Assembly (NCBI GenBank): GCA_014238965.1
Contig: JABAAC010000053.1
Coordinates: 8,284-72,283, forward strand
Origin: Phycisphaerales bacterium
GTDB lineage: Bacteria > Planctomycetota > Phycisphaerae > Phycisphaerales > SM1A02
DNA: 64,000 nt
Direction: 5' to 3'
Part shown: positions 3,038 through 41,317 of the stretch, piece by piece
How the letters are laid out: each line of letters starts with the position of its first letter
How positions within the stretch are numbered: the stretch's first letter is position 1
Translations under genes and position numbers: made by a program
The notes under the pieces: generated by a model
Databases searched by the model: none
What the model was told of the DNA's origin: nothing
The model's input: the letters and a program-made list of their open reading frames with translations, nothing else

Positions 3038-5041
3038 ATGCTGTATGTCGTACTTGTGAGTTCGTCGCTCGTTGGGCCAGCGCCGTTTGACACAGATCAT
3101 CCCATGTTGCACGCCTGGTTCGAGGCGGGCGAGGGTGTCAATGATGGCACAGCCGTCGACGGTGATGCCGTTTTGAATTGGCTTGACATATCTGGCCATG
3201 AACGCCACCTCGTGCGGACCGATGCCCAGCCGGATCGCCATGCCACATGGTTCGGCGACGCAATGGAAGGTAACCCAGTTGTTTCCTTTGACGGCAATGA
3301 CTACATCTGGTGCGAACCAGACAGTACATGGGGCACGCTAGATGGCAACAAGACTATTTTTGTTGCACTGCGATGTGATGTAGCTGATGGGGGGTACGTT
3401 TTTGATTCCTACACTTATGCAGGTCGAAACGCACTCTTTACAGGGCAGAATGCAAATCCACAAGAGTGGTGTATGTACGACGGCACGAATGTCATGGGCT
3501 CGTCCATTGTCACGACTGATGCCGTTCGCGTGCATACCATCGAGATCTCTGACACAGGCATGCGGCATCGCATCGGCGGCGCACTGATTGACGAGAGTCC
3601 TTGCGACAATGGCTCCATGATCGGTGTCCTAGTAGGCAGCCGTTACAACCTTGCCAACGGTTTGAACGGTGACATCGGCACGTTCTTGGTGTTCAACGGC
3701 ACACTTCCTGACAGTGAGCGCCAAGCAATTGAGAGTTGGCTCAATGATCGCTATCCGGCCACTGAGGTTCCTGATCAGCCTGAGTTTGTAACGGTTTTCC
3801 AAAATGGCGAAGGTGGCTGGCCGCAGTATCGCATTCCATCACTGCTGACAACCCAGCAAGGCACCGTGCTAGCGTTTGCTGAGGGGCGTACCAGCCTCGG
3901 CGACAACGCGCAGAACGACATTGTTATGCGGCGGAGCACCGATGGGGGTCGGACTTGGGGTACCCATGTGCTGCTTGATGACGCTGGCGGCAATTGCGCC
4001 AACAATCCGACACTTGTGCAAGTTTCCGGCGGCCTCCATGCTGGGCGGATCATCATGATGTATCTGACCATTCCAGATGGCTGCCACTTGGGCTGTGTGA
4101 GTCCGGGATACGTTGGCGACTGGATCATTCGCATCATGAAGATGCACTCAGATGATGACGGATTGACCTGGTCTGCGCCGGTGGACGTTACACCTGGATG
4201 TAAACGCGAGACCACCGCCGATGTGATGATCGGCCCAGGACTTGGCATCGAGAAGCGTCGATCGCCGTTTACGGGCCGGTTGGTCATGCCCCTTGCCGAA
4301 CGCGTCGGTGGCCACTGGTATGCCTACGCGGCGTGGTCTGACGATGGCGGGAACACGTGGCAATTCGGACAGAACATCGATGACACACTTGTATCAGGCA
4401 TGATGAACGAGGATCAACTCGTCGAATTGACCGACGGTCGGCTGCTCATGAACACGCGGCACTACGGCGGCGATCCAAATCGGCTCGAGGCGCACAGCAC
4501 TGATGGCGGGGCAACGTGGGGGCCGGCTTATCTTTCCAATCTTCCTGGCACCGCGTGCATGGCCAGCATCATTCGTTTGACGGATCCTTTGGATGGCTTC
4601 ACAACGCCTCGCTTGCTCTATTCCGGGCACGCCAACAACGGCCGCGATGAAGGCACAATCTGGGTTTCCTATGATGAAGGTACTTCGTGGGGAAGCGGTC
4701 GGTTGCTCGAGCCCGGTGGCTTTGCCTACAGCGTGGCGCAGGTCATCGACTGTGAGACGATTGGTGTGCTCTACGAAACAACGAACTATGCGAGCATTCG
4801 TTTGGGAGTCTTCAGCCTAGAGTGGCAGAGTGCTGATGCCGACACTCTGGAAGGCGAAGGGCCCTGCGGATCATGTGTGACCGACATAAATGACAGTGGT
4901 GAAACCGATGTTGATGACCTTTTACAAGTCCTTGGAGCGTTCGGAACGACTTGTACAGACTGCCCCGCAGACATTGATGACTCCGGTGACGTCGCGGTGA
5001 ATGATCTGCTGCTGCTGATCTCAGGTTGGGGGCCGTGTTGA
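3038..5041 (+). CDS. exo-alpha-sialidase (GH33-like) with N-terminal LamG-like region and C-terminal dockerin-like module
   Basis: YRIPSL (FRIP-type) motif. Five Asp-boxes (STDGGRTW, SDDDGLTW, SDDGGNTW, STDGGATW, SYDEGTSW). C-terminal DINDSGETDVDDLL / DIDDSGDVAVNDLL repeat pair. SD-like GGAGAGTGAGGA upstream. Confidence 0.85.
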   Translation: MLYVVLVSSSLVGPAPFDTDHPMLHAWFEAGEGVNDGTAVDGDAVLNWLDISGHERHLVRTDAQPDRHATWFGDAMEGNPVVSFDGNDYIWCEPDSTWGTLDGNKTIFVALRCDVADGGYVFDSYTYAGRNALFTGQNANPQEWCMYDGTNVMGSSIVTTDAVRVHTIEISDTGMRHRIGGALIDESPCDNGSMIGVLVGSRYNLANGLNGDIGTFLVFNGTLPDSERQAIESWLNDRYPATEVPDQPEFVTVFQNGEGGWPQYRIPSLLTTQQGTVLAFAEGRTSLGDNAQNDIVMRRSTDGGRTWGTHVLLDDAGGNCANNPTLVQVSGGLHAGRIIMMYLTIPDGCHLGCVSPGYVGDWIIRIMKMHSDDDGLTWSAPVDVTPGCKRETTADVMIGPGLGIEKRRSPFTGRLVMPLAERVGGHWYAYAAWSDDGGNTWQFGQNIDDTLVSGMMNEDQLVELTDGRLLMNTRHYGGDPNRLEAHSTDGGATWGPAYLSNLPGTACMASIIRLTDPLDGFTTPRLLYSGHANNGRDEGTIWVSYDEGTSWGSGRLLEPGGFAYSVAQVIDCETIGVLYETTNYASIRLGVFSLEWQSADADTLEGEGPCGSCVTDINDSGETDVDDLLQVLGAFGTTCTDCPADIDDSGDVAVNDLLLLISGWGPC

Positions 5042-5054
5042 GGCCATCACCGTA

Positions 5055-5816
5055 ATGCGACACGTTCAGTACATGTTTGCGTTCGCCGCTGCTTCGATTG
5101 TCAGCACATCGGCCATACACGGCGACGTGGTTCACATCACATTTACTGGTACGGTGGAGTGGAACCAAGTAGGCACGCCGCCACTTGGGGATGTCAACGC
5201 CTCGGATGCAGTGACATGTTCGTTTCAGGTTGATACTGATTCATTTATAGACGGTGTTGCGTACCCAACCCGCGGATATGACATCGACTCGGCATCGTGG
5301 TTGCTCATGATGGGCACTACATCCATCGATATCCAGACACCATTTCAAGGCACACCGTTCTTCGTCTTACGCGATAACGACCCAGCAGTCGATGGTTTTA
5401 TGTTGAGCACTAACGAGGTGTACTTTCCTCTTGGCGTGCCGCTTGAACAAGTTGGAGCCTTTGGTGACTTTGTACATGTCGTATCAGTCACGTATGGAAG
5501 CGATGCGCTCTCATCACTAGATATTGCTGATGCGCAAGGTACGTACGACTTCACGGGTCTGAGTGTCTACAACTGGGTGATTGAAGATGGGCCGTATCTG
5601 CCATTAGGCGTGGAGTTTGAGCAACTCACAATCGAGGTCGTTTCGGATGAGTTGCTTGGCGACGTGAACGGTGACTGTGTCGTGAATCTCGATGACCTAC
5701 TGCTCGTCATCAGCCATTGGGGTGATGGATCAGGTGGTGGCGATGCCAATGGGGATGGCGCGACAGATGCTGTGGATGTGCTGGCGGTGATTGGGCAGTG
5801 GGATTCGGCCTGCTGA
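5055..5816 (+). CDS. secreted hypothetical protein with C-terminal dockerin-like module
   Basis: Signal-peptide-like N-terminus (MRHVQYMFAFAAASIVSTSAIHG). C-terminal DVNGDCVVNLDDLLLVISHWG / DANGDGATDAVDVLAVIGQW repeat pair. Lies 13 nt after the sialidase stop. Confidence 0.6.
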   Translation: MRHVQYMFAFAAASIVSTSAIHGDVVHITFTGTVEWNQVGTPPLGDVNASDAVTCSFQVDTDSFIDGVAYPTRGYDIDSASWLLMMGTTSIDIQTPFQGTPFFVLRDNDPAVDGFMLSTNEVYFPLGVPLEQVGAFGDFVHVVSVTYGSDALSSLDIADAQGTYDFTGLSVYNWVIEDGPYLPLGVEFEQLTIEVVSDELLGDVNGDCVVNLDDLLLVISHWGDGSGGGDANGDGATDAVDVLAVIGQWDSAC

Positions 5817-5861
5817 GCACTTCGCATACATAAGAGGGGTGGTTTCAACTAGGCTGCCGCA

Positions 5862-7421
5862 ATGACCGGCCCATTGCTGTATGTCCTTTTGGCCTTGATG
5901 GCGACCGTAGAAGCGCCTCTGGAACAAACGAAGCCCATTCGGCCCAACATTGTGTTGTTGTTCACTGACGATCAACGCGATGGAACATTTGGCGCTATGG
6001 GGCACCCGTTCCACACAACGCCGCACGTGGACGCACTGCTTGCCAAGTCGGTTCGATTCACGAACGCGTACACGGCGACGCCTGTTTGCTCGCCGAGTCG
6101 AGTGAGCATGCTTACAGGGCAAAGCGAACGCACGCATGGGGTTGGGTTCGGAACGTCCTATCAACTCAATGAGGAACAGTGGGCTGCGACATATCCTGCG
6201 CTATTGCAGGCCGCCGGGTACTTCACCGGTTTTATTGGAAAGTTCGGCGTGGAGTACTACACCTTTAAAGGTAAGGCTTCAGAGCGATTCGACTTTTGGT
6301 GGGGGCACGATGGTTGGACGAAATTCCACCCGAAGCAGCACGCATCGGCGTCATGCAGGCCATATCACCGCGCTGAGCATGATGAAATCACATTCATCAT
6401 GGGCGAGGCGATGGCTGCGTTTCTCGATGCAGCAGCATGTGACAGGCCGTTTTGTTTGTCGGTGAGTTTCAATGTGCCGCACGGGTCACAGGTCACCAGT
6501 ATGCATACGGAGTACAAAGACTGGCAATTGATGACGCGTCCTGCCAACGAAAATCCAAAACTCAAGGGCAGTGCGTTCTACGACGACTTGTATCGAGACA
6601 CGGCCATCGAGATTCCTGCAGCAACGGCTACCGATCCGTACCAGTACATTCCCGAAGCAATTCAGAATCAGGATAAGGGGCGTCGTACCCAGACCTATGC
6701 CTACAACTACTCTCGGCCAACGAACCTTGAACATCACGTGCGCTACGGACAGACGATTTCGGCGCTCGACCAGGTGATTGGAGATTTGGTTTGTGATCTA
6801 AGGCACCGTGGTTTACTTGACAACACAGTGATTATCTTTGCGTCAGATCACGGCGTCCTCATGGGTGAGTACGGCATGGGTGGGAAGGCGCTGCTATACG
6901 ACCTTGCAGCGAAGATCCCGTGTTTTGTGTATGACCCGCAGGTTGCAGTCACTCGTCGTGGGCAAGCAGTTGGAGAACTCGTGACCAGCATCGACATCAC
7001 CGCAACCATGCTTGACTATGCGCAGGTCGCTGCGCCGGAGTTCAGCGAAGGTGTAAGCCTTCGTCCGCTGATTGAAGGCGTTGAAGTGGACTGGCGTAAC
7101 GAACTCTTTCTTGAGAGTCTGTTCGTACTGCGCGATACGCCTTTCCAAGAGGGTATTCGTCGAGGGAATTGGAAGTACATTCGCATGTTCGACGGTGTGC
7201 AGGGTTGGCGTGAAGAAGACATCGCGTTCTCGGGTCGAACACCGGCCTTTGAAATGCTCTTCAATCTTGAGGAGGATCCCGGAGAGGAGCACAATCTTGT
7301 TGGGCAGATCGAATGTGAGTCGGTGCTCGTGGATCTGCGAGCTCGGTGTGCTGCACAATCGAACGCCGGAAACGTTCGACGTACCGCATTTCAGGATGCG
7401 GTGATTACGACGCCGCGTTAA
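5862..7421 (+). CDS. Cys-type sulfatase (arylsulfatase family)
   Basis: Formylglycine signature CSPSRVSMLTGQ after NIVLLFTDDQRD, signal-like N-terminus, FASDHG motif. Confidence 0.85.
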   Translation: MTGPLLYVLLALMATVEAPLEQTKPIRPNIVLLFTDDQRDGTFGAMGHPFHTTPHVDALLAKSVRFTNAYTATPVCSPSRVSMLTGQSERTHGVGFGTSYQLNEEQWAATYPALLQAAGYFTGFIGKFGVEYYTFKGKASERFDFWWGHDGWTKFHPKQHASASCRPYHRAEHDEITFIMGEAMAAFLDAAACDRPFCLSVSFNVPHGSQVTSMHTEYKDWQLMTRPANENPKLKGSAFYDDLYRDTAIEIPAATATDPYQYIPEAIQNQDKGRRTQTYAYNYSRPTNLEHHVRYGQTISALDQVIGDLVCDLRHRGLLDNTVIIFASDHGVLMGEYGMGGKALLYDLAAKIPCFVYDPQVAVTRRGQAVGELVTSIDITATMLDYAQVAAPEFSEGVSLRPLIEGVEVDWRNELFLESLFVLRDTPFQEGIRRGNWKYIRMFDGVQGWREEDIAFSGRTPAFEMLFNLEEDPGEEHNLVGQIECESVLVDLRARCAAQSNAGNVRRTAFQDAVITTPR

Positions 7422-9616: not shown

Positions 9617-10112
9617 GTCGATCTGGCGTTCTTGAATCAAGTGGGGGGAAGCTGCTCACTTGCATTAGTCGTGGTGCTTGGTTTGATCAATTCTCGCGAT
9701 CCCTCCGGATTGGGGGAATGGCCAGTTCAAAGGACAGCGGTCACCTTTGACCGGCCGTATCGAGGACCAGACCACTCACGCGGGCGAGGTTGAGAAGTTC
9801 TAGGTCATCCTTTTGCTGCCAGAAGGGGCGAGACGGGGGCGGAAAGTGAGGAACCGTTGCCTTTGGCATCAATTCCCGACTTGCCGCCCCCGCCTGTTTC
9901 CTTCTCGTCTCTTCTCTCACTAGGTAGTGGTGAGTCCCTTTCTAGTTGATACACACAAGTCAGAAAACTTACGTCCGATAGAAAACTTTGGACTTTCATG
10001 CATCACCGAGGGGCCCCTTGCCCTCGTTCTATCTGTAAAGCCACGATGCAGTCGGCCAAAGACGGCTGTGTGGGGTAAATCCAAGGAAAGAAACTTAGGA
10101 GAAGGTTTAGAA

Positions 10113-10778
10113 ATGAATAACGCAAGTATGAAACTAATTGGAAGTGTTGGGATTCTGGTATCTGCAGGTGCGGCCTCGACCGTGGCCTGTGCCAGCCCCT
10201 ATCTCGGTATTGTCGCGGACTACATCGATAACGGTGGGGCTATCGCTGGCGATACCTACCGTTTGTATGCCGAGCTCGAGGCTGGCGCTCGAGTTGATGC
10301 CGTGTATGGCAATAGCTCCCATGAATTGATGATTGATGTTGACGGGGGCTCATTTGTCCAAAGTTCATATGGCGGTAACACGTCACAGGACATTAACCCA
10401 GCGTTCTTCCCCATCGTGGGTTCCCTTCAATGGGAATCATTCGTGACGATCGGACTGCTGGATAACTCTGGTGGCAATGCCTTGAACAACGTAGGCATCG
10501 ACTGGTCTTCTTTCGAAGCTGGTGGCGCCTTGACTACGGATAACGGCACTTGGTTTGTGACCCCAAGCGATGCGCAGGGCGACGAAGTCGGTGGACGCGT
10601 CCTGTTGGGTCAGTTCACAATTACGGCTGGCGCCTCCCTTGTGGGGCAGATCAGCATGCAAGGCAAGGATGCTAATGGAGCGACCTGGCAGGCCAACAGT
10701 GTCAGCTGGGTTCCCGCACCAGGCGCACTGGCACTTATCACGCTGGCTGGCTTGGCTGGTTCACGACGTCGTCGATAA
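10113..10778 (+). CDS. PEP-CTERM sorting-domain secreted protein
   Basis: C-terminus VPAPGALALITLAGLAGSRRRR (PEP-like motif, TM helix, Arg cluster). Signal peptide from ATG 10113, preceded by AGGAGAAGG. Confidence 0.75.
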   Translation: MNNASMKLIGSVGILVSAGAASTVACASPYLGIVADYIDNGGAIAGDTYRLYAELEAGARVDAVYGNSSHELMIDVDGGSFVQSSYGGNTSQDINPAFFPIVGSLQWESFVTIGLLDNSGGNALNNVGIDWSSFEAGGALTTDNGTWFVTPSDAQGDEVGGRVLLGQFTITAGASLVGQISMQGKDANGATWQANSVSWVPAPGALALITLAGLAGSRRRR

Positions 10779-10843: not shown

Positions 10844-10877
10844 CACCGCCCCGTCCTCTTCCACGGGGCGGTGTTTG
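10844..10877 (+). terminator. intrinsic terminator after the PEP-CTERM gene
   Basis: CACCGCCCCG-(10 nt loop)-CGGGGCGGTG followed by TTTGTGC. A second bulged hairpin GGCCCGGTATTACCGGCC plus TTTG lies at 10883-10903. Confidence 0.6.
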
Positions 10878-11117
10878 TGCGCGGCCCGGTATTACCGGCC
10901 TTTGCGGTGTGAACCGCATGATTCCAAATCGCTATAAAAGTCATACCGCGGCTATGGCAATACGCCATCTATCAATCGGCTGTATCAGACTTGGGTCTCA
11001 ACTCCTCCCATACTGAGGAGGAGCTGATTTAGGCATTTGGGCCAGCAAAGTTACCTTATGACTGACGACTTGAGATACGCTGAATTACCTATGGGATGCC
11101 GCACTCCAGTGGAGAAG

Positions 11118-11657
11118 ATGACAGACGTCCAGCTCATCGATGCCTGTCGCGATGGCTTGGAGCCAGCCTGGGGCGAATTCGTGAATCGATTTGGACGGCT
11201 TGTCTACGCCGCAGCTCGTCGGCGTGGCCTGCGTCATGCTGACGCTGAAGAGGTATTGCAGCGCACATTTGAATCAGCTTGGAAGCACATTGATCAGTTG
11301 CGTGACTCAAAGGCCGTGCGCGGCTGGTTGTTGACAACCGCCATGCGGCAATCTTGGCGTGTTGGTCGTGCGGCGACAAAGATGCCATCCTTTATCGATG
11401 CAATAGACGAACCCAGCGGAGATGACGCTGATCGCCTGCAGCAGTTGGAACGACAAGACTTGGTCAGGCGGGCATTGTCACTGTTGGGTGATCCTTGTAA
11501 AGCCCTGTTGATCGCGATCTTTCGTAGAGGGCCAGGCGATCGCTATGCAGAGGTTGCTGAGCAACTTGATATTCCAGTGGGCAGCATCGGTCCGACGCGT
11601 GGACGCTGCTTTCGAAAACTTGAAGACATTCTTGGACGGCTGGGATTCACACCCTGA
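11118..11657 (+). CDS. ECF-family RNA polymerase sigma factor (sigma-70 regions 2 and 4)
   Basis: N-terminus MTDVQLIDACRDGLEPAWGEFVNRFGRLVYAAARRRG with later AWKHIDQLRDSKAVRGWLLTTAMRQ (region 2) and YAEVAEQLDIPVGSIGPTRGRCFRKL (region 4 HTH). GGAGAAG sits directly upstream of ATG 11118. Alternative in-frame starts are TTG 11037 and ATG 11058. Confidence 0.85.
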   Translation: MTDVQLIDACRDGLEPAWGEFVNRFGRLVYAAARRRGLRHADAEEVLQRTFESAWKHIDQLRDSKAVRGWLLTTAMRQSWRVGRAATKMPSFIDAIDEPSGDDADRLQQLERQDLVRRALSLLGDPCKALLIAIFRRGPGDRYAEVAEQLDIPVGSIGPTRGRCFRKLEDILGRLGFTP

Positions 11658-11687
11658 CTGGTCCCTTTCTTGTAGAGCACATCACTT

Positions 11688-12350
11688 ATGAAACTCACTG
11701 ATGAAATGTATGATTTGACGCTTGCGTGGGCTTCCGGAGAACTTGACCCGGATCAGTCACAGGCGCTCGATGCAGCCCCGCAGGAACGTGTGGCAGAACT
11801 CGCTTCGCTTTGGCAGAGTATCGAAGCAATCGTTGTCGCCGATGAGGAGTTAGAGCCATCGACTCAAGCGCTTGCTCATGCAATGGCGATCCCCTCTGAA
11901 TCTCGGAGTAAACAGCCCTTGCATCAGACTGTTGCCGCGGCAGCCAAGGCAACGTTGCAAGACTTGCTTGATCAGTTTGACGGCGTGGTGGCCAGGTTGG
12001 TCCACGATGATCGTCTTACGCCCCTTGCGGTTCGAGGTGAGGCAGCGCAGGTCGTGCATCTTGCATGGGAGGCTGGCGAACTGGATATCGACCTAGTGGC
12101 TGAACCCTCCGCATTGGATCCTTTGACCGGTCAAACGTCGAGTTGGGTACTCCGCGGACAGGTTATGACTGATCTTCAGATCGGCGAGATTGACGCTGCG
12201 CTTGTGGACTCTACGACTCGATCGGTCGTGTCCTCTACGGTGGTCGATCGAGATGGTTGCTTCATACTTGCCGCAGATGCGGGATCGTGGTGTTTGCGCA
12301 TTGGCGCTAGGGATCGTGGCCTCCATCTGGAACCGGTAGAACTTGGGTGA
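11688..12350 (+). CDS. hypothetical soluble protein in the anti-sigma position
   Basis: Lies 30 nt after the sigma stop and shares a GTGA overlap with the next gene. No hydrophobic TM stretch and no HxxxCxxC motif seen. The C-terminal half looks beta-rich (VVDRDGCFILAADAGSWCLRI). Confidence 0.5.
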   Translation: MKLTDEMYDLTLAWASGELDPDQSQALDAAPQERVAELASLWQSIEAIVVADEELEPSTQALAHAMAIPSESRSKQPLHQTVAAAAKATLQDLLDQFDGVVARLVHDDRLTPLAVRGEAAQVVHLAWEAGELDIDLVAEPSALDPLTGQTSSWVLRGQVMTDLQIGEIDAALVDSTTRSVVSSTVVDRDGCFILAADAGSWCLRIGARDRGLHLEPVELG

Positions 12351-15163
12351 GCGCGACTGCTCATCAACGCGGCTTGCTTCAACATCTTGCGCAGTTGGAT
12401 GCTAAGGATGGTTTGGCGTCACTGGCAGCGGTTGGCCCGGTAGACGAACAGCTTCAAGTTGCTGTTGAGGCTGTTAGCGCAGTTGTTATGCAGGACATCC
12501 CAGCCGCGGTTGAAGGCGCGCGCGCCGTTGTGATGATTGCAGACTTGTGTGGCGTACCCATCGGCCGTGTGACTGCTCGTCGAGCGTTGAGTCGTGCCCT
12601 TGCTTGGGGAAGCGAATACACCGCAGCCCTATCAACTGCACAAGAGGCCGTGAAACTGGCGTTGAATGCAGGTCTTGAGGAAGAAGCAGGGCGAGCAAGG
12701 CTGGCATCTATGCATGCTTTGACCGAGATAGGTCGGCTTGACGATGCGGCGACTACAGGCCAGGAAGCTCGAGAGGCATTTGAGCAGATGGGCCTTGAAT
12801 CTATGGCTGCACGTGCGGACATTAATCTCGGCGTTGTGTACCAGCATCTGGATCGTCCAAAGCGGGCGGTTGAGTGCCTCAATCGTGCGCGTGCTGGGCT
12901 TGCGGGCGAGTCTGGCGTGCTGGGTCATCTTGAAAATAGCCTTGGTGAGTCGCTGCTGGCCATGGACGACATGGTCGGTGCAGAAGTCGCCTTTCTGGAT
13001 GCCCGCAAGGCCTTTGAGGCTGCTGACTCTGATCTCACGGCAGCCATCGCAGAGGGCAACCTTGCTGATCTGGCTGCGCGGCGTGGTCGTTTCGGCGAAG
13101 CATTGCATTGGTTTGAACAAGCTCGCCGGCGTCTGGTTCCAGTCGACGCGCCTGGGCATCTCGCACGGGTCTTAGCGGAGCGTGCCGAAGTGCTCGCTGC
13201 AGTGGGTATGTCCGCGGCGTCATGCAGGGCGTTCGAAGAAGCCCTTCCCATACTTGATGATGCGGGCTTGTTGGTAGAAGCAGCACGGGCACGTCGTGGT
13301 CTTGGCCGAGCCTATATGGCCGCTGGCCAATCGTCTCATGCGTCGACAATGCTTGCTGCTGCTGCGACGGCATTTGGTGATCTTGGGCAATTGGTTCCAA
13401 AGGCAGAGATTGATCTTGATCGAGCCAAGATTGCAATTGGGCGAGGTCGCACTGGACAGGCGTTTCGATTAACGCATGCTGCCATGTCAAGTTTCCGCGA
13501 TCGACCATTGCGTGAAACGGAGTGTCACCTTGTGCTGGCTGAAGCCAATCTTCCAGAGGATCCTCAGCAGGCAGAGTGTGAACTCAATGCAGCAGAATTA
13601 GGAGCACGGCGACTTGATGTGCCACCGCTTCTTGCCCAGGTACTTCATGTTCGAGGACGATTGCGTCGGTCTCAGCATCGGCTGGATCTTGCCGCGGCCG
13701 CCTTGTCCGAGGCAACAGACCAAGTTGAGCGATTGCGGGGCACTGTGCAGGCGGATCGATGTCGTGCGGGGCTTGGCTTAAGCAACCGTGCAATCTACGA
13801 GGATCATTTGAGTGTGTTGATTGAACGTGGGGACAGAGACAGCGTTGCAACCGCATTCTCCGTGGCCGATCGCATGCGTAGCCGGACGCTGCTCGATCAG
13901 GCGCGGCGTGGCCAGATGTCAGATCGTTCTATGGATTCAGTGGATCAGGATCCGTGCGAACAGCTCCGAGGTAAACTGAGCCTTCTATATAGTCGGCTTG
14001 CGGATGCGATGGATGGTGAAGAACTCGATGTTGGGTCGTGGAGGCAGGATCTACGTCGCACTGAAACGGAACTTGCCGATGCTGAAGTCCAGCTCGCTTC
14101 ATCCCATGGCATGGCTTCGCTTGACAACTCTCGGGTGGATCTTGCTGCAGTGCAGGCACAGCTTGCCAGCGGCGAGGTTCTGCTGCAGTACACCGTTCTG
14201 AGTGGTGAGGTCATGGCCTTTGTGGCGCATGCAGATGGATTGGAACTTGTAAGGGGCCTTGGGACTGTCAGCGACGTGGCCCAACAGCTCGAAGCGTTAC
14301 GTTTCCAGATTTCACGAGCGGTGGGGCACCGCGGTACATCACATCGGCGTCTCAATCGCATGATTTGTGAGACACGCGGACAAATGAACAAGTTGTATGC
14401 CACGTTAATGGCTCCGCTTCCCGACGTGGCCCATCAGGCTTCCCGATTAATTCTCGCATCACAAGGACTGCTGCATCTGGTTCCATTTCATGCGTTGCAC
14501 GATGAGTCGCAATGGGTGATTGAGCGTAGTGACGTGCAGTACGTGCCAAGTGTGTCCCTGTTGATGCACCTTCGTAGTCGTTTGCGGCAAACGCCCAAGG
14601 GGCCTGACTTGGTGGTTGCCGGTCGTACACAGGGGTTGCCTGGCGTACGCCGCGAAGCCGAAGCCGCAGCTGCCATGCTGGGTGAATCAACGGTACTGTT
14701 GTGTGATGGTCAGGCAACTGTTGCGGCTGTCCGCGATGCTGCTGAACATGCAAGGATCATTCACATCACTGGACACGGGCGTTTTATGCCGACACATGTC
14801 GGGGCCAGCGGCGTACGCCTTGATGACCGCTGGTTGTCATTGCATGAGATTCAGGATCTTTGCCTTAAAGCGAATCTCGTTGTACTCAGTTCGTGTGAGT
14901 CTGGCCCGGTTCAGGCATGCACAGATGATGAGCCCACAGGGTTGTTTCATGGCTTTCTAGCTAGTGGGGCAACCGGGCTGCTAGCTACACTGTGGCGGGT
15001 CTCGGATGCAACCTCACGTATTTCCCTTGCATTGTTCCATAAGCACCTCCAAACTGGCCTGACGTATGCAGGCGCCTTGCGGGAGGCTCAGCTCGAAACA
15101 ATGCAGTCAACCCCGCATCCGGCCCACTGGGCGCCTTTTATCTTTACAGGAGCGGAAGCATGA
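12347..15163 (+). CDS. TPR-repeat / CHAT-domain (caspase-fold) protease
   Basis: About 560 aa of TPR-like repeats (NLGVVYQHLDRPKRAVECLNRA, EGNLADLAARRGRFGEALHWFEQA). C-terminal CHAT signature with His (IIHITGHG, codon 14774-14776) and Cys (LVVLSSCESG, codon 14894-14896). No signal peptide. Confidence 0.8.
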   Translation: MSATAHQRGLLQHLAQLDAKDGLASLAAVGPVDEQLQVAVEAVSAVVMQDIPAAVEGARAVVMIADLCGVPIGRVTARRALSRALAWGSEYTAALSTAQEAVKLALNAGLEEEAGRARLASMHALTEIGRLDDAATTGQEAREAFEQMGLESMAARADINLGVVYQHLDRPKRAVECLNRARAGLAGESGVLGHLENSLGESLLAMDDMVGAEVAFLDARKAFEAADSDLTAAIAEGNLADLAARRGRFGEALHWFEQARRRLVPVDAPGHLARVLAERAEVLAAVGMSAASCRAFEEALPILDDAGLLVEAARARRGLGRAYMAAGQSSHASTMLAAAATAFGDLGQLVPKAEIDLDRAKIAIGRGRTGQAFRLTHAAMSSFRDRPLRETECHLVLAEANLPEDPQQAECELNAAELGARRLDVPPLLAQVLHVRGRLRRSQHRLDLAAAALSEATDQVERLRGTVQADRCRAGLGLSNRAIYEDHLSVLIERGDRDSVATAFSVADRMRSRTLLDQARRGQMSDRSMDSVDQDPCEQLRGKLSLLYSRLADAMDGEELDVGSWRQDLRRTETELADAEVQLASSHGMASLDNSRVDLAAVQAQLASGEVLLQYTVLSGEVMAFVAHADGLELVRGLGTVSDVAQQLEALRFQISRAVGHRGTSHRRLNRMICETRGQMNKLYATLMAPLPDVAHQASRLILASQGLLHLVPFHALHDESQWVIERSDVQYVPSVSLLMHLRSRLRQTPKGPDLVVAGRTQGLPGVRREAEAAAAMLGESTVLLCDGQATVAAVRDAAEHARIIHITGHGRFMPTHVGASGVRLDDRWLSLHEIQDLCLKANLVVLSSCESGPVQACTDDEPTGLFHGFLASGATGLLATLWRVSDATSRISLALFHKHLQTGLTYAGALREAQLETMQSTPHPAHWAPFIFTGAEA

Positions 15164-16668
15164 GTCACTTCGTTCAACAACTTTCTGCACGGTTCACAAT
15201 GCTGCTCGTATCTGCAGTGCTGTGTTGTGTTTCTGGCATCACACGTCCAGCCTCAGCAATTCCCTGTGATTTGCTCTCCGACGTTTCATTGGATCGGATG
15301 AACTTCCGTTTGGTCCCCGGCGCAACTGTGTCGCAGTTGTTGGATGCCATTCAAGTTGATTGGCCCGAAGTTGACTGGACTGTTGTGGGCGGGAAGCCGC
15401 TACGTGGCTACTACTGTGTGCATGTGGCAGCTCCTACATCTTGGACAGATGTCGAATGGGGCTTGTTTCATTCCGCCATGGCAGTTGGGTACCCGACAAT
15501 TGCCAATTGGATGGAATTCGTCAGTGATGACGAGGCACCCGAAGGCGGTACGGGAAGTACATTTGTCGATGGACTTGCCGATCTTGAGTCGTATCAAATT
15601 CAATATGCAGCACTGACTTTAGGTCTATCGGTATCACACATGCGTTCAACGGGTGTTGGTGTTGCCGTTGCCGTGCTTGATACCGGTGTTGACGCTGAAC
15701 ATGAATTGTTGGCAGGGCGGGTCCTTCAGGGCTGGGACTTTGTCGATGGCGATGCGTTTGCTGACGATGAAGCCTCAGGTCAAGACTTGGACGGTGATGG
15801 CCAGATTGATGAAATGACTGGGCACGGTACGTTTGTTAGTGGGCTGATCGCATTAGTTGCACCTGACGCTCGCATATTACCTGTTCGTGTACTTGACTCA
15901 GAGGGGCGTGGGGACTCATGGCGTTTAGCCAGTGGAATCTGGTATGCCATTGATCATGGCGTGGAAGTCATCAATCTCAGCCTAGGATCAACCGAAGATT
16001 CAATGATCGTTGAGGAAGCGTTGCTTGAGGCATATGAACTTGGAATCAGTGTCATTGCTGCGGGCGGCAATTGTGATCGCAATTGGCCGCGCGAGTTCCC
16101 AGCAATGACAGATTACGAAGTCATCGGTGTTGCGGGCGTGGATGATCTTGACAGTCGCGCGGGCTTTTCCAACTATCATTCAACACTCAAAATGTCGTCA
16201 CCTTCGACCTGTGCCGTTGACACTATGGGCGAACCTGTTATTGAACGATCGATCATTAGTGGCCTTCCAGGTGGACGCTTTGGCATCTGGGAAGGGACAA
16301 GTATGGGTACAGCATTTGTCTCAGGAACAGCCGCTCTCGTTCGGTCCCAGCACCCTGAGTGGGATGCCTCCAATTCGACTTCGCAATCAGTGGCCAATGC
16401 GATCATGTCTGGGGCGGTCAATATCGATAAGCTCAATGCAGATTTCATCGGACTCATTGGCGTGGGGCGACTCGATTCCGCTGCAAGTACGTCGCTTTCG
16501 CCAGCGGCCCCAATGCAGGGTGATCTCGATGGTAGCGGTGCCGTTACCGTGGACGACTTACTGCTCTTGCTGGGAGGTTGGGGAGAGGTTCACTCTTCCG
16601 CAGACTTTGATTGCAACGGCGCAGTCGATGTAGACGACATGTTGATTCTGCTTGGCAGTTGGGGATGA
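15160..16668 (+). CDS. secreted S8 subtilisin-like serine protease with C-terminal dockerin-like module
   Basis: Catalytic triad blocks VAVLDTGVD, GHGTFVSG and GTSMGTAFVSGTAALV. Signal peptide MLLVSAVLCCVSGITRPASA. C-terminal GDLDGSGAVTVDDLLLLLGGWG / DFDCNGAVDVDDMLILLGSWG. ATGA overlap with the CHAT gene. Confidence 0.85.
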   Translation: MSHFVQQLSARFTMLLVSAVLCCVSGITRPASAIPCDLLSDVSLDRMNFRLVPGATVSQLLDAIQVDWPEVDWTVVGGKPLRGYYCVHVAAPTSWTDVEWGLFHSAMAVGYPTIANWMEFVSDDEAPEGGTGSTFVDGLADLESYQIQYAALTLGLSVSHMRSTGVGVAVAVLDTGVDAEHELLAGRVLQGWDFVDGDAFADDEASGQDLDGDGQIDEMTGHGTFVSGLIALVAPDARILPVRVLDSEGRGDSWRLASGIWYAIDHGVEVINLSLGSTEDSMIVEEALLEAYELGISVIAAGGNCDRNWPREFPAMTDYEVIGVAGVDDLDSRAGFSNYHSTLKMSSPSTCAVDTMGEPVIERSIISGLPGGRFGIWEGTSMGTAFVSGTAALVRSQHPEWDASNSTSQSVANAIMSGAVNIDKLNADFIGLIGVGRLDSAASTSLSPAAPMQGDLDGSGAVTVDDLLLLLGGWGEVHSSADFDCNGAVDVDDMLILLGSWG

Positions 16669-16694
16669 TGATTGCCCATTGACTGTCCTGACGC

Positions 16695-16720
16695 GGAGAT
16701 GCACATCTTCGTTTATTTTC
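16695..16720 (+). terminator. weak candidate intrinsic terminator after the S8 gene
   Basis: GGAGAT-GCAC-ATCTTC (6 bp including one G-U pair) followed by GTTTATTTTC. Confidence 0.3.
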
Positions 16721-16923: not shown

Positions 16924-16947
16924 CAGGCCCGCCAAAGGCGGGCCTGT
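16924..16947 (-). terminator. hairpin terminator downstream of tRNA-Pro (possibly bidirectional)
   Basis: CAGGCCCGCC-TTTG-GCGGGCCTG on the minus strand, 5 nt after the tRNA 3' end, followed by TCTTGTGTC. Confidence 0.5.
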
Positions 16948-16952
16948 GTCAA

Positions 16953-17027
<75 letters not shown>

Positions 17028-17051: not shown

Positions 17052-20000
17052 TCACGGTTCGCGGAGCCAATTGAGCAAGGTTCGAATTTCGCCTGGACGC
17101 AGCGTGTTGAGCAGCCCAGATGGCATTGTCGAAACATCAGAAGGTTCGATGGACAGGATGTCTGATCTCAGTATCGACATCGTTCGCACAGGGGCATATG
17201 GGTCCACATCTAGGACGATGCGACGGGCATCAATATCGATCAGCCGGCCCGTAAACAAGCCATCTTCAGTTTCCACCCATGTCGCGGCGTACTGATCAGA
17301 CACATTTCGGTTTGGTTCGAGCATGGCTCGAAGGAGGTCCGGTTCGCTCAATCTGCCACCCACGCCGCTCAAGTCGGGGCCTGCTGACCCGCCACGCCCG
17401 TGAAATCGGTGGCATTCCACACATCTTGCTGCAGTGAATAAGGCCTCGCCATCGCCTTCTGGCGTAGCGTCCACAAGTGCAGCATTGAGTTCACTGATCG
17501 TCCAATGAGCCACATGCGGCCTTTTCATGCTCGGTACGGTCGGGTTGTCATCGACATCAAGTTGCCCCAGGAGGGCATTGCGATGCGATGCTTCCATGTC
17601 TCGCATGAACCGAGTTTCGAATGCTTGGAGAAAGCCCGCAGCGCTGCGTCCACCAACAATGCCGCGCTGCCTCCGCAGCCACCGAACATAGTGAAGTTCC
17701 TGTGATGGGGTCCAGTGGCCTCGATGTAACCGAGCCAATAAGGCCCAATATAAAGCGTCATCGCGATGCACAGACTCCATCTTTGCAAGCAACCAAGCAT
17801 TGATATCGGCGTTCAGATGCACTAGGACTCGCGCAGCCTCGCGCTGTACTTGATGGTTGCTGTTCTGAAGCATTCGATGAAGCGTCTGCTCCAGTACATC
17901 ACGAGTAGCAGCGGTGGGGTCGCCATGCCGCGCCATCATGACCGCCATGGCACGCAGCAAGTCCGCCTGTACGCCAACATCGCCAGTGCGCGTCGTCGCT
18001 GCGGCCAATCGAAGTAATGCCTCATCGCGATCATCGCCCCCCCCGTGCTTTGCTAGGTGCAGCATTCCATCGACCATGATTGGGGGGTCTGTTTCTCGCA
18101 GTGCGCGGTCGCGGACCGTCTCTTGTGGAAGTGCGTGAAGGGCTGATCGCGCTGCAGTGGACATGGCTCGATCGCCTGTACCAAGGTGTCGCCATACTTC
18201 ATCAATCGAAAGGTTGCCCGCAACGCCGGCGCGTTCCAGTCTCATACGCTGCGTTATGGCTGGTGAGATGTCCACTTGAGGTTCAACCCACTGGGGTTCA
18301 TCTGCTGCTATGCGCCAGAGGCTCGATGTTGTGCCGCGGCCGCCGGTGATGATGTACAACGCTCCGTCGGGCTTGGGTGCAAATCGCATACAACTGACGT
18401 TGAATGGGCGGCCGTGGGCGAAGAGTTCTAGGGTACCCGTGAACGACGCTCCTTTAGCTTGTGGCTCAAGTGACCAGATGCGGCCATAGGACCAGTCTGC
18501 GAGCAACAGTACGCCTTCCCAGTCCGCGCCAAAGCCACCATCGCCAGCATGCACCACTGCAGTTGGACTCGCTGGCGGGGTGTCAGCGACCGCTGGCAGT
18601 GCATCGGGGTACCAATTCGCCCACTTGCCAGTGCCTCCACGCCAGCCATTGTCTGCGCCGGGCACAATGTGCACCACGCGGGGCGGCCGATACCACGGCA
18701 TGCCCATGTCCCACTCCATGTCACTGTCAAATGTGAAGCATGAATCGTCCGGCATGAATGCAAGATCACAAGCGTTGCGTAAACCGCCACTGACGACTTC
18801 GAACGACAAGGCATCCAAATCCGTTCGCAATACGACACCGCCGGGTGATGTGATACCAACGGCGTGGCCATTGGCATCCCACTGTCGCTCGAGCAGAAGA
18901 TCTTCGGCCCATGCACGAAAAGGACTGTCTTCTAGATTGGTACGTGGAGGCAGTGCTGTGTGGTTGCCCTGCACGATCCACAATTTTCCATCGGGGCCAA
19001 GTCGGATTGCATGCGGCCCGTGTTCTGAGCCATTGCCCCAGATTGCGAGGTGTTCGTGTGTGTCGTAGCGACCATCGCCGGTCGTGTCGCGCAATCGATG
19101 CAAGCCGCCCTTTGGTGGATTGCGTGAGACGATGACGTACAAGGCACCGTCTGAATACAGCATGCCCTGTGCATGGCCAATGTCAATGGCGATGGGTTCA
19201 CTTGTACCCTCTGCTAGGTTGAGTCGACGAATGCGACCATGCTGAGGCGATACGAGCAGCTCACCATCTGGTTCAAATGCCATGGATACCCATGAGCCTT
19301 GGTCGCTGGGTACATCCATTAGTTTTTGAGCATGAAAGCCATCGGGAACCTGCAACTGGTCAATACTGCTGATTGCTTCAATATGGCGCAAGTCAATCTG
19401 GCGAAGCGATACACGACTATTGCTACCTGGCTTAAGTCCAAACCCGATTCCACCGGTCATGTGTTGCGTACTGGGATCTTCATCCCACGTTTCGGAGACG
19501 AGTCGGCCATCAATATGGTGTGTGAGGTGTGGCCCTTTCGCTGTGACACGCAGCGTGTGCCAAGTGCCCACTGTGATATCAGCGAGCAGTGCATCCGCGT
19601 CGCCAACAACGCCGAGGTCTTGGCGATTGTCTTGAAATCCAAAGCGTCGCCGTGCGCCTGGTGGTGTCATCGGGCCACGGCCACCAATTTCATGGAGCGA
19701 TCCGGTGTCAGTGTTTGTCGCGTCGATCGATGCAAAGTAGCCGTGCAGTTGGTGTGTGTCGTCGAAGGTAGTTCGATAGGCAACCGCCGTCGTCCCTGCG
19801 TCAATTTGAAATGCCAGTGTCAGGACGAAGTCACCGGCGGTGCCGGGCCAGAGCAGCCAACTCGCTTGGGTCAATCCATCGCCTGAGCCCACAATGGATG
19901 TTTCGGAGTCCGTCGTTTCGACCGTCCAGACTGCAGGGCCCACAACGGTGAAGCCTTCAAGCGATTGGCCATCGAAGATTGGTGCAGTGCAGATTGTCAG

Positions 20001-20063
20001 CGCAAGGGCATGCAGCACCACGGCAGCATAGAGTGCCTGACTGATGTGTGACGAACCCGCCAT
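17052..20063 (-). CDS. PVC-type multidomain protein: DUF1080 (3-keto-disaccharide hydrolase-like), beta-propeller dehydrogenase-like region, HEAT repeats and C-terminal cytochrome c
   Basis: N-terminal signal (MAGSSHISQALYAAVVLHALALTICTA from ATG 20063). DUF1080-like FDGQSLEGF start. C-terminal CVECH heme motif (17409-17423). The overall order matches the membrane-bound-dehydrogenase / heme-binding family common in Planctomycetes. Confidence 0.7.
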   Translation of the reverse strand: MAGSSHISQALYAAVVLHALALTICTAPIFDGQSLEGFTVVGPAVWTVETTDSETSIVGSGDGLTQASWLLWPGTAGDFVLTLAFQIDAGTTAVAYRTTFDDTHQLHGYFASIDATNTDTGSLHEIGGRGPMTPPGARRRFGFQDNRQDLGVVGDADALLADITVGTWHTLRVTAKGPHLTHHIDGRLVSETWDEDPSTQHMTGGIGFGLKPGSNSRVSLRQIDLRHIEAISSIDQLQVPDGFHAQKLMDVPSDQGSWVSMAFEPDGELLVSPQHGRIRRLNLAEGTSEPIAIDIGHAQGMLYSDGALYVIVSRNPPKGGLHRLRDTTGDGRYDTHEHLAIWGNGSEHGPHAIRLGPDGKLWIVQGNHTALPPRTNLEDSPFRAWAEDLLLERQWDANGHAVGITSPGGVVLRTDLDALSFEVVSGGLRNACDLAFMPDDSCFTFDSDMEWDMGMPWYRPPRVVHIVPGADNGWRGGTGKWANWYPDALPAVADTPPASPTAVVHAGDGGFGADWEGVLLLADWSYGRIWSLEPQAKGASFTGTLELFAHGRPFNVSCMRFAPKPDGALYIITGGRGTTSSLWRIAADEPQWVEPQVDISPAITQRMRLERAGVAGNLSIDEVWRHLGTGDRAMSTAARSALHALPQETVRDRALRETDPPIMVDGMLHLAKHGGGDDRDEALLRLAAATTRTGDVGVQADLLRAMAVMMARHGDPTAATRDVLEQTLHRMLQNSNHQVQREAARVLVHLNADINAWLLAKMESVHRDDALYWALLARLHRGHWTPSQELHYVRWLRRQRGIVGGRSAAGFLQAFETRFMRDMEASHRNALLGQLDVDDNPTVPSMKRPHVAHWTISELNAALVDATPEGDGEALFTAARCVECHRFHGRGGSAGPDLSGVGGRLSEPDLLRAMLEPNRNVSDQYAATWVETEDGLFTGRLIDIDARRIVLDVDPYAPVRTMSILRSDILSIEPSDVSTMPSGLLNTLRPGEIRTLLNWLREP

Positions 20064-20709
20064 TTTACACGGTACAGCCGACTGGCTTGTAGTGGACAAA
20101 CCTGTGGGTTGGCACACGATCAGTGGGTCAGGCGCATCCGATCGGCCAGATCTTGAGGCGTGGTTGCGAGCACACGTCAACACAAGTGTTGATCTACATG
20201 AAGCTGGCTTGGTGCATCGACTGGACCTCTATACCGGAGGATGTGTGCTTGTGGCGACTAACGAACAAGCGAGACAAATGTTGCGTGAGGCCATGAGCGG
20301 GAGAGGCAACATTGCCGATGCAATTCGCAAGGTGTATCTCGCCCAAGCCACAAGCGATATTCCATCTCGTGGCGGATTTGAGTTGTCGTTTTCCAGTCGC
20401 TACAAGCGTTCCAAGAGAGTCACGGTGTCTGCGACGGGGCCACAAAAGTCGCTTGGCATTTGTCAGTGGCGAGGTGGATACGCGGGCGGTGGAAATGGTG
20501 TAATCGAAGTTGAGTTACAAGGCCCTGGTCGGCGACATCAGATTCGCGCTGGACTTGCGCATCTAGGGCATCCACTCGTTGGCGATGCACTTTATGGCAG
20601 CTCTGAAGTTGAAACAGCAGGTGATGTAGGCCCACGACTGCATGCATGGCGATTGTATATAGGAGATGACGTCGTCGAATCGCCGCCGCCTCACTGGGCA
20701 CATGCCTAA
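20044..20709 (+). CDS. RluA-family pseudouridine synthase
   Basis: WLVVDKPVGWHT, catalytic HRLDLYTGGCVLVA and RRHQIRAGLAHLGHPLVGDALYG motifs. Confidence 0.8.
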   Translation: MCDEPAILHGTADWLVVDKPVGWHTISGSGASDRPDLEAWLRAHVNTSVDLHEAGLVHRLDLYTGGCVLVATNEQARQMLREAMSGRGNIADAIRKVYLAQATSDIPSRGGFELSFSSRYKRSKRVTVSATGPQKSLGICQWRGGYAGGGNGVIEVELQGPGRRHQIRAGLAHLGHPLVGDALYGSSEVETAGDVGPRLHAWRLYIGDDVVESPPPHWAHA

Positions 20710-38125: not shown

Positions 38126-38676
38126 ACAAGCGGCTTTTCTCGCTCGCATGCGTATTGCTGTTGCTGGCGGTGGGTTCCGTGCTGCTTGGATTTGTCATGT
38201 CGTTGCGGTCCGTAACGCTTCAGCATGTAGAGGTGCCACCAGGAGCAACAGTGCACATTGATCAGCCAGGAACGTGGCTGTTGTGGCAGTCAGCACCAGC
38301 TGTGACATCGTCAAGTGCTCGAAAGCTGCCACATGCCTATCCGACACTCACGGCACAAACCGGTGCCGTCTTAGAGATGGCGCCTACGATTCGAACGATT
38401 GAATTCACCCACGGCGATGCATCGCTCATTGTCGTTGGCCGCTTTGAGGTTCAGTCTGCTGGCCTGTGGGAGTTGGGCCTCATCTCCAGCGAAGATGAGG
38501 TGAGACGCTCCTGGGCAATAGGCCTCGATCCGCTGCCCAACGTCAAGTTGTGGAGTCTGTTGACAGTTTCGGCGGCGATTATCTTGCTCGGCGCAGCGGC
38601 TTGCACTGGCTGGATTGCGATTCGTAGGCCCTCAAACCAAGCTTTGCCCTCAGTCAAAGGGTCCTCACGCGGGTAG
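38122..38676 (+). CDS. hypothetical membrane protein with a TM helix at each end
   Basis: GTGA overlap with the upstream stop. N-terminal LFSLACVLLLLAVGSVLLGFV and C-terminal LWSLLTVSAAIILLGAAACTGWIAI hydrophobic segments. Confidence 0.5.
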   Translation: MNKRLFSLACVLLLLAVGSVLLGFVMSLRSVTLQHVEVPPGATVHIDQPGTWLLWQSAPAVTSSSARKLPHAYPTLTAQTGAVLEMAPTIRTIEFTHGDASLIVVGRFEVQSAGLWELGLISSEDEVRRSWAIGLDPLPNVKLWSLLTVSAAIILLGAAACTGWIAIRRPSNQALPSVKGSSRG

Positions 38677-38701
38677 ACTGAGGGTGCTGGAGGACCTTGC
38701 C

Positions 38702-41313: not shown

Positions 41314-41317
41314 TCGC

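Follow-up and report, generated by a model that had tools for sequence, protein, structure and literature searches.

A conserved operon of an ECF sigma factor, a candidate soluble anti-sigma factor, a TPR-CHAT protease and an exported subtilase in Planctomycetota and Chloroflexota

Introduction

Caspase-fold proteases in which tetratricopeptide repeats (TPR) precede a CHAT domain have been studied experimentally together with sigma factors of the extracytoplasmic function (ECF) type in two systems, Craspase and DdvA, and both of these are linked to defence. In Craspase, which belongs to type III-E clustered regularly interspaced short palindromic repeat (CRISPR) systems, the cytoplasmic TPR-CHAT protease Csx29 stands beside an ECF-type sigma factor, CASP-sigma, and its soluble inhibitor Csx30, and cleavage of Csx30 by Csx29 frees the sigma factor (PMC10028731). 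In the DdvS/DdvA system of Myxococcus xanthus (PDB 8rlz, 8rot and 8rw5), the ECF sigma factor is paired with a class-I anti-sigma domain that is tied to a TPR-CHAT protease with a His/Cys dyad. DdvA is one transmembrane protein with a zinc-bound anti-sigma domain and a periplasmic TPR-CHAT part; it acts through RseP-dependent intramembrane proteolysis and controls a CRISPR and cyclic oligonucleotide-based anti-phage signalling system (CBASS) island. Such fusions are reported to be rare, with examples in Myxococcota and one Comamonas (PMC11506125). Here we describe a stand-alone operon form of this pairing, a cassette of four genes for an ECF sigma factor, a candidate soluble anti-sigma factor (ORF2), a TPR-CHAT protease and an exported subtilase of family S8. 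The cassette lies in a 64,000-nucleotide stretch of DNA, referred to below as the window, from a Phycisphaerales bacterium (GCA_014238965.1, contig JABAAC010000053.1, positions 8,284 to 72,283), of which a preliminary description had been made from the letters alone.

Several other systems share parts of this logic. In CalpL/CalpT/CalpS and in SAVED-CHAT/PCaspase/PCc-sigma of type III-B loci, a protease linked to defence is triggered by cyclic oligoadenylates through a SAVED domain and then cleaves either a sigma factor or an anti-sigma-like partner, which alters transcription (10.1101/2023.06.23.546230). In RseA/DegS/RseP and RsiW, proteolysis removes the class-I anti-sigma domain by which an ECF sigma factor is held, the anti-sigma factor being a membrane-spanning protein that is cut by envelope site-1 and site-2 proteases.

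The genomic association itself has been catalogued in the literature on ECF sigma factors. A review (PMC8999054), citing Casas-Pastor 2021, describes an ECF group whose conserved neighbours are carboxypeptidase-like, subtilase and CHAT proteins and suggests that it is regulated by proteolysis, and Casas-Pastor 2021 (PMC7826278) describes ECF54 of Actinobacteria and ECF58 of Planctomycetes as sister groups with no known regulator. The two sources conflict in that PMC7826278 ties ECF54 to a 4Fe-4S protein, whereas PMC8999054 ties ECF54 to CHAT and subtilase proteins and ECF58 to an Fe-S protein (DUF3470/4Fe-4S); one of them has probably swapped the two numbers. Whichever group number applies, the gene association is already catalogued and the proteolytic hypothesis has already been voiced.

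Results

A four-gene cassette co-inherited across two phyla

The four genes run in the same direction in the order sigma factor, ORF2, TPR-CHAT and S8 (Table 1). A gap of 30 nt separates the sigma factor gene from ORF2, the ORF2 and CHAT genes share a 4-nt GTGA overlap in which the GTG start of CHAT lies on the TGA stop of ORF2, and the CHAT and S8 genes overlap by ATGA. This arrangement had been given in the preliminary description, and our open reading frame (ORF) calls reproduce its coordinates. The four genes are translationally coupled.

When one genome per species was scanned with the CHAT protein, 127 relatives came up, and 80 loci were retained. Most of these loci belong to Phycisphaerae or other Planctomycetota, while seven come from Chloroflexota (Thermomicrobiales, Ardenticatenaceae, Sphaerobacteraceae and Chloroflexia); full-length relatives of the CHAT protein, of about 940-960 aa, number more than 160. 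In nearly every one of the 80 loci the sigma factor gene lies upstream of CHAT and the S8 gene immediately downstream, all on the same strand, and the 4-nt overlaps recur between ORF2 and CHAT (46 loci) and between CHAT and S8 (61 loci). All-against-all clustering of the ORFs at the level of BLAST found CHAT in 80 loci, S8 in 76, the sigma factor in 70 and ORF2 in 64, and the next real family around the cassette in at most 13, so that only these four families are conserved and the flanks are variable. ORF2 alone, used as a query, retrieved eight clusters at 90% identity; an iterated ORF2 profile, however, matches the slot directly 5' of CHAT in 81 of 84 loci, the three others being contig ends or an ORF-calling artefact. 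In a relative with 48% identity in ORF2, the order sigma-ORF2-CHAT-S8 is kept while the flanks differ. The co-conservation of the four genes, which the preliminary description had proposed to check by gene neighbourhood, is thus clear: the operon is a self-contained cassette that has been co-inherited across two phyla far above chance.

The cassette is also independent of CRISPR. No CRISPR array is present in the window by searches for tandem or spaced direct repeats across its 64 kb, and no cas domain occurs in its ten largest other ORFs, in agreement with what had been noted from the letters. Within 8 kb on either side of the cassette in the 80 related genomes there is no CRISPR-like array, no conserved cas or defence gene and no conserved gene of the size of Cas7-11. 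Downstream of one cassette (locus L032, 12614-13029) the 18-mer ACGAACGGTAACACGAAC is repeated at irregular spacing, which suggests a coding repeat rather than a CRISPR array.

Three genomes carry two copies of the cassette on different contigs (L032 and L047 in CAZGTH01, L053 and L059 in JAGQOO01, L068 and L074 in JBGAKK01). The sigma factor, S8 or CHAT gene appears split or on the wrong strand in some close assemblies (L086 4749-5349; L002-L004 around 4630-6160; L087 2208-4502), and these cases are probably frameshift errors of metagenome assembly rather than biology.

The TPR-CHAT protease

The Pfam search identified a CHAT domain (PF12770, 6.3e-52) together with TPR_12 and TPR_1 repeats in the third protein, and no transmembrane-like window of 19 residues and no signal peptide were found in it. 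The AlphaFold2 model (mean predicted local distance difference test score, pLDDT, 88.8; predicted template modelling score 0.84) folds about 30 helices into a repeat superhelix over residues 3-586, followed by an alpha/beta CHAT domain at 610-935. The putative catalytic dyad consists of H810 (codon 14774-14776) and C850 (codon 14894-14896), the codons named in the preliminary description, which had read the protein correctly as TPR-like repeats plus a CHAT domain with an intact dyad. Both residues are invariant in alignments A1 and A4 and in 81 of 81 sequences, so the degenerate dyad in orthologues that would have spoken against this description was not seen; H806, D827 and D887 are, like the dyad, invariant or nearly so in the same 81 sequences. 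A His/Cys CHAT domain after a helical repeat array is the arrangement of the separase-like CHAT peptidases of clan CD, and it is the arrangement of this protein.

Foldseek searches of the PDB with the model gave human separase (4e-16), Csx29 (8eey_B, 9e-16) and DdvA (8rw5, 7e-13) as its best structural matches. Superposed on Csx29 in Craspase complexes, the model reaches a template modelling score of up to 0.63 (normalisation by the target). Csx29 proteins are also the nearest solved sequence relatives of the CHAT domain (1.8e-10). The structural closeness to Csx29 that had been supposed is therefore real, alongside closeness to separase. The protein is nevertheless not a member of the Csx29/Craspase family: it scores 37.7 bits against NF041237, whose cut-off is 300, over the CHAT core only, and no cas genes or array were found with it in the window or conserved around it in the related loci.

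ORF2, a candidate soluble anti-sigma factor

ORF2 appears to be built of three parts, a helical anti-sigma domain (residues ~1-66), a disordered linker (~51-98) and a C-terminal beta-sandwich (103-219) of the CarboxypepD_reg/transthyretin-like type. Its AlphaFold2 model has a mean pLDDT of 74, with four N-terminal helices, a disordered stretch at ~51-98 (pLDDT below 50) and a confident sandwich. Neither a transmembrane-like segment, in windows of 19 residues, nor an export signal was found in it.

The argument for an anti-sigma function comes from the family. The family alignment shows the N-terminal motif Y-E-x-L-x-A-Y-A-x-G-E-L-x-x-x-E-A, and in the orthologues of Chloroflexota it is followed by H-x3-C-x2-C. 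This HxxxCxxC motif is what marks anti-sigma factors that bind zinc. Its three ligand residues, one His and two Cys, are lost in the ORF2 of the window and in most planctomycete members, the motif being present in 29 of the 148 top ORF2 representatives and lost in 119; at the aligned position the ORF2 of the window reads A-A-P-Q-E-R-V. The preliminary description, which had noted both the missing transmembrane segment and the missing HxxxCxxC, was accurate on the two counts, and ORF2 itself falls outside the zinc-binding anti-sigma subclass. When the members of the family were scanned singly, 11 of 53 matched zf-HC2 (PF13490) and 5 of 53 matched CarboxypepD_reg.

Searches of the PDB with family profiles point the same way. 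The N-terminus of the ORF2 family profile (A2) matches DdvA (8rlz_A, 1e-4), RslA (1.5e-4), ChrR (2e-3), RsiW (3e-3) and RseA (0.017), and its C-terminus matches the transthyretin-like domain of NOMO2 (6e-9). A profile of the first 80 residues of the planctomycete members that lack the zinc motif (A5), for which noise starts above E = 0.2, has as its four best matches DdvA (1.9e-3), RslA (5e-3), full-length DdvA and RseA (0.048). By these profiles the family has an N-terminal helical domain homologous to known anti-sigma domains, as class I anti-sigma factors do, and the N-terminus of the ORF2 of the window aligns over its full length to the planctomycete members. Foldseek with the ORF2 model returned only generic Ig-like beta-sandwich matches, none at E ≤ 0.001. 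Because this structure search missed the small anti-sigma domain, the assignment relies on the sequence profiles.

Conservation in ORF2 is highest at the entry of the sandwich, at A102, L104, D107 (96%), R109 and R116 (99%), which form the motif A102-x-L-x-x-D107-x-R109...R116-G; G157-Q158 come next, and then D187, G190, F192 and G199. Searched against 1.84 billion representative proteins, the ORF2 profile finds 475 clusters at 50% identity with E ≤ 1e-10; of these 475, the best 150 are almost all full length, at about 200-220 aa. We propose that ORF2 belongs to a large family, so far without annotation, of soluble anti-sigma factors of class I that carry a C-terminal beta-sandwich, and that a probably degenerate zinc-type class-I domain is fused to the sandwich in it.

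The ECF sigma factor and its upstream region

The first gene encodes an ECF sigma factor, as had been read from its region 2 and region 4 signatures. The protein matches Sigma70_r2 (PF04542, E=5.8e-11 in the Pfam search) and scores 57.3 bits against TIGR02937 (sigma70-ECF; cut-off 42.9), covering model positions 2-163 of 165, and in the PDB search it aligns over its full length, across sigma2 and sigma4, to sigma-E of Escherichia coli (1or7_A, 6e-8), as well as to SigE, SigH and SigL; it belongs to the ECF sigma factors of group IV. Its start had been placed at ATG 11118. An alignment (A6) with three relatives, whose ORF2 identity is 58-67% and whose sigma factors are called at 188-190 aa, revises this: ATG 11118 is missing in two of the three, whereas ATG 11091 is invariant and is probably the start codon.

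In the same alignment, two blocks of invariant columns lie some 100 nt upstream of the sigma factor gene in the clade of the window: the octamer TGTATCAG and, about 17 nt further downstream, a CTC. The element they form, GTATC-N17-xCTC, is shared with eight loci (L001, L006, L008, L063, L070 and L087-L089), and the dyad GTATC/ACTC was observed in 9 upstream regions against 0 expected. It may be a promoter or operator, an assignment we make with low confidence. There is no enrichment of the element over all 69 upstream regions, and a scan of the window found only intragenic matches at chance level and no informative second copy; therefore no regulon can be defined from it.

The exported S8 subtilase

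The fourth protein is a signal-peptide S8 subtilase, as first described, with a signal peptide at residues ~1-33, a catalytic domain at ~160-420 (D174, H222, S381) and a dockerin-like tail at ~453-502. It matches Peptidase_S8 (PF00082, 3.5e-36) and is of the thermitase/subtilisin type by PDB search (thermitase, 1e-29); at least 74 of 75 sequences keep the D174/H222/S381 triad that marks family S8 in MEROPS. The N-terminus is hydrophobic, typical of a signal peptide, and signal-like N-termini recur in the orthologues. The dockerin-like tail of the preliminary description stood in part. Two repeats of the form D-x-D/N-x-D/S-G...D-hLLxLLxxWG can be seen, and 47 of 74 orthologues have loops of this kind, but the model NF041540 supports it weakly, at 17.9 bits under a cut-off of 29.

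The protein is not a mycosin, with 151.6 bits against TIGR03921 (cut-off 278.75) and no C-terminal transmembrane-like anchor in 74 orthologues. It is also unlikely to be the protease that acts on ORF2, given that it and its orthologues carry signal peptides and dockerin repeats and ORF2 has no export signal; because it is exported, we regard it as an output or accessory arm. In a few loci a second S8 gene stands in tandem behind the first (L081 9516-12924, L065 3467-6680, L087 4715-7901).

Boundaries and surroundings of the operon

The operon is bounded by terminator-like hairpins on both sides; its closure by hairpins and a convergent tRNA gene is as the preliminary description had it (Table 1). 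The gene immediately 5' of it (9927-10778, forward strand) ends in a PEP-CTERM-like sorting tail, VPAPGALALITLAGLAGSRRRR, read from the translation. On the other side lies a 1043-aa ORF (17052-20183, reverse strand) with a CxxCH haem motif close to its C-terminus, whose equivalent in a near-identical contig encodes a product that matches 3keto-disac_hyd; secreted proteins of this dehydrogenase/cytochrome type are typical of planctomycetes. Further along, a long co-directional run (36141-50457, forward strand), of which two ORFs were scanned, includes BatA and von Willebrand factor A (VWA) domain proteins and looks like an aerotolerance operon of the Bat/MoxR type. The ten largest other ORFs of the window include a class II ribonucleotide reductase, UvrD, glutamate dehydrogenase, a sulfatase, BatA/VWA and a tricorn-like protease, and one of the ten has no Pfam match.

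Table 1. Positions of the cassette genes and of the features around them in the window
Feature	Position	Strand	Size	Basis or remark
Terminator-like hairpin	10851..10871	+		Stem-loop and T tract; ends the upstream PEP-CTERM-like gene, left operon boundary
Candidate promoter/operator	10981..11007	+		Octamer TGTATCAG (10981-10988) and CTC (11005-11007), GTATC-N17-xCTC; low confidence
ECF-type sigma factor	11091..11657	+	188 aa	PF04542, TIGR02937, sigma-E match
ORF2, soluble class-I anti-sigma candidate	11688..12350	+	220 aa	Family profiles, AlphaFold2 model, conservation
TPR-CHAT caspase-fold protease, cytoplasmic	12347..15163	+	938 aa	PF12770, AlphaFold2, Foldseek, dyad conservation
Exported S8 subtilase	15160..16668	+	502 aa	PF00082, PDB matches, triad conservation
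Terminator-like hairpin	16693..16712	+		25 nt past the S8 stop; right operon boundary
Further hairpin	~16926-16950			Read directly from the sequence
tRNA-Pro(tgg)	16953..17026	-		Convergent neighbour, outside the module

Discussion

In this study we describe a CRISPR-independent four-gene operon in which an ECF sigma factor, a candidate anti-sigma factor and a TPR-CHAT protease with an intact dyad are encoded together. The preliminary description had likened the locus to Craspase, and part of that comparison stands: an ECF sigma factor, a soluble partner and a TPR-CHAT protease are all present, just as the type III-E locus has a cytoplasmic TPR-CHAT protease beside an ECF-type sigma factor and a soluble sigma-binding inhibitor. 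The identity of the parts with Csx29 and Csx30 does not hold. The CHAT protein fails the cut-off for Csx29 and exceeds Csx29 in length by about 200 aa, the ORF2 profile is of the class-I anti-sigma type with no detectable similarity to Csx30 in the PDB search, and there is no Cas7-11, crRNA, CRISPR array or Csx31 here, while an S8 protease is present. DdvS/DdvA is a nearer precedent, because ORF2 appears to be a degenerate class-I anti-sigma domain with a beta-sandwich; in addition, the ORF2 profile finds its best PDB match in the anti-sigma domain of DdvA, and DdvA ranks high among the structures that resemble the CHAT protein. The cassette is nevertheless not of the DdvA type, since the two proteins are encoded by separate ORFs with a 4-nt overlap and neither has a transmembrane segment or a signal peptide. 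Where DdvA is one transmembrane protein, the cassette divides the putative anti-sigma factor and the TPR-CHAT protease between two soluble proteins of the cytoplasm; its zinc motif has been lost, it has a beta-sandwich and an exported S8 protease in addition, and no defence island is attached. The contrast with CalpL and SAVED-CHAT is that no SAVED domain, cyclase or CRISPR system is found and that the TPR array would be the sensor. In contrast to RseA and RsiW, ORF2 is soluble, and the operon itself supplies the dedicated candidate protease, a caspase-fold enzyme of the cytoplasm.

With regard to ECF classification, the conserved carboxypeptidase(-regulatory)-like, subtilase and CHAT neighbours described for ECF54/ECF58 are the three accessory domain types of the cassette. 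Both groups are described as having no anti-sigma factor; in the cassette, by contrast, an anti-sigma domain seems to form the start of the carboxypeptidase-like protein. The loci found here belong to Planctomycetota and Chloroflexota, not to the Actinobacteria of ECF54. A tblastn search of PLSDB for an actinobacterial example of the published ECF54 context gave generic CHAT-domain matches only. The sole actinobacterial match (L085, Nonomuraea gerenzanensis NZ_LT559118.1 7209714-7224598) was rejected, as it lies in a LuxR/AAA-TPR context and is not the cassette; an AAA-TPR-LuxR regulator and a small LuxR-type protein stand directly upstream of a 1149-aa CHAT protein there, in an 11.85-Mb record entered as a 'plasmid' and scarcely annotated in PLSDB. 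Because the ECF papers already group these neighbours and propose proteolytic control, we consider the logic of the cassette to be Craspase- and DdvA-like rather than a new category. What is new here is the strict four-gene unit over two phyla, independent of CRISPR; the carboxypeptidase-like neighbour as itself a candidate anti-sigma factor, as the family profiles suggest; and a TPR-CHAT protein of the architectural class of separase, Csx29 and DdvA, with R116-G as a candidate cleavage motif.

Taking these results together, we favour a model in which the cassette is a self-contained ECF sigma switch gated by proteolysis, and we would give this model, in full, a probability of about 45%. In the resting state, ORF2 would hold the sigma factor through its anti-sigma domain and so sequester it, and the TPR-CHAT protease would be latent, as separase, Csx29 and DdvA are. 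A cue, probably a protein or peptide ligand, would be read by the TPR superhelix, by the beta-sandwich of ORF2 or by both; the activated CHAT domain would then cut ORF2 in the disordered linker or at the near-invariant R116-G117. Loss of the remaining anti-sigma fragment would free the sigma factor to transcribe its regulon, which probably includes its own operon, so that more S8 protease would be exported as an extracytoplasmic output or accessory arm. Three lines of evidence support this model: DdvA, as a 'Rosetta stone', fuses an anti-sigma domain to TPR-CHAT (PMC11506125); Csx29 cuts Csx30 and thereby relieves the inhibition of CASP-sigma (PMC10028731); and the translational coupling of ORF2 and CHAT persists where the zinc motif is lost.

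Several points weigh against this model. The anti-sigma assignment of ORF2 depends on its relatives and on moderate E-values between 1e-4 and 2e-2; the ORF2 of the window on its own has no Pfam or NCBIfam family match, and its pairwise alignment to the orthologues with the zinc motif covers the C-terminal half only. The links of ORF2 to the sigma factor and to the CHAT protease are ones that we infer from sequence and by analogy, and the cleavage site proposed in ORF2 is a guess. Neither a spaced-dyad count nor an expectation-maximization motif search over the 69 non-redundant upstream regions gave a family-wide -35/-10 motif of the ECF type, and autoregulation is therefore unproven. The model also leaves an exported S8 protease in a cytoplasmic switch with a role that it does not explain, and dyad mutants of DdvA had no phenotype under the conditions tested (PMC11506125).

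The alternative that survives best, although we regard it as unlikely, is that the sigma factor and ORF2 form an ordinary sigma/anti-sigma pair with CHAT and S8 as co-transcribed outputs for protein turnover, nutrient acquisition or programmed lysis. ORF2 would then be inactivated by redox or zinc release in the forms with the zinc motif, and by a partner or by general proteolysis in those without it. The redox-type HxxxCxxC kept in the Chloroflexota orthologues fits such a pair, ECF operons often carry their own targets, and Casas-Pastor 2021 cautions against taking conserved neighbours for regulators, since they may be targets (PMC7826278); S8, being exported, is very likely an output. Yet the zinc motif is lost in 119 of the 148 top representatives, and CHAT is still joined to ORF2 by the 4-nt overlap. 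Moreover, the solved TPR-CHAT proteases, separase, Csx29 and DdvA, are specific and regulated single-substrate switches (PMC11506125, PMC10028731), and DdvA holds both an anti-sigma domain and TPR-CHAT in one polypeptide. If the proteases were only outputs of the regulon, the locus would be an ordinary ECF operon.

It is less probable again that the cassette is a CRISPR-independent anti-phage or abortive-infection module, in which TPR-CHAT would sense a phage protein and free the sigma factor, degrade host proteins or do both, with S8 as a second effector. CHAT and subtilase domains do recur as defence effectors, DdvA/DdvS and Craspase are both linked to defence (PMC11506125, PMC10028731), and the variable flanks and occasional second copy in a genome would suit such a module. 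PADLOC, however, gave weak matches to BovA and to its 'subtilase' model and no convincing family match. Around the cassette the window holds housekeeping or catabolic genes rather than a defence island, the 80 genomes share no conserved defence or cas gene close to it, an exported dockerin-tailed protease would be an odd abortive-infection effector, and a distribution that is broad but largely within one class is more like that of a resident regulator. Least likely of all is a partner switch without proteolysis, in which TPR-CHAT would be a scaffold or sensor that competes with the sigma factor for ORF2 or holds ORF2 as securin holds separase, its dyad serving only self-processing or an unrelated substrate. 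In favour of this, TPR arrays bind proteins, a pseudosubstrate inhibitor keeps separase in check (PMC11506125) and the conserved beta-sandwich with its R116 motif could be a docking element, but the invariance or near-invariance of H806, H810, C850 and the adjacent acidic residues in 81 sequences argues that catalysis is the selected function.

Returning to the switch gated by proteolysis, we speculate further, and with considerable doubt, that the cassette may represent a free-standing pathway of ancestral type in which a caspase-like protease licenses an ECF sigma factor, and that type III-E systems (Csx29/Csx30/CASP-sigma) and DdvA later co-opted or fused this pathway. In Planctomycetota and Chloroflexota it would be a switch independent of guide RNA: TPR-CHAT would sense an intracellular protein cue, phage-derived or proteotoxic, cut the zinc-less anti-sigma factor at R116-G and so couple the alarm to secretion of the dockerin-tailed subtilase.

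In summary, the pairing of TPR-CHAT with an ECF sigma factor spans two phyla here and has neither CRISPR nor CBASS beside it, next to an ORF2 family of 475 clusters. As a cryptic anti-sigma factor, ORF2 would change the picture for an ECF group that is listed without one, and it makes the proteolytic hypothesis concrete by offering a defined candidate substrate and a candidate cleavage motif. If the model is true, the cassette, simple, soluble and made of four proteins, would serve as a model for the activation of caspase-fold proteases in bacteria, as well as an orthogonal protease-gated sigma switch for synthetic biology.

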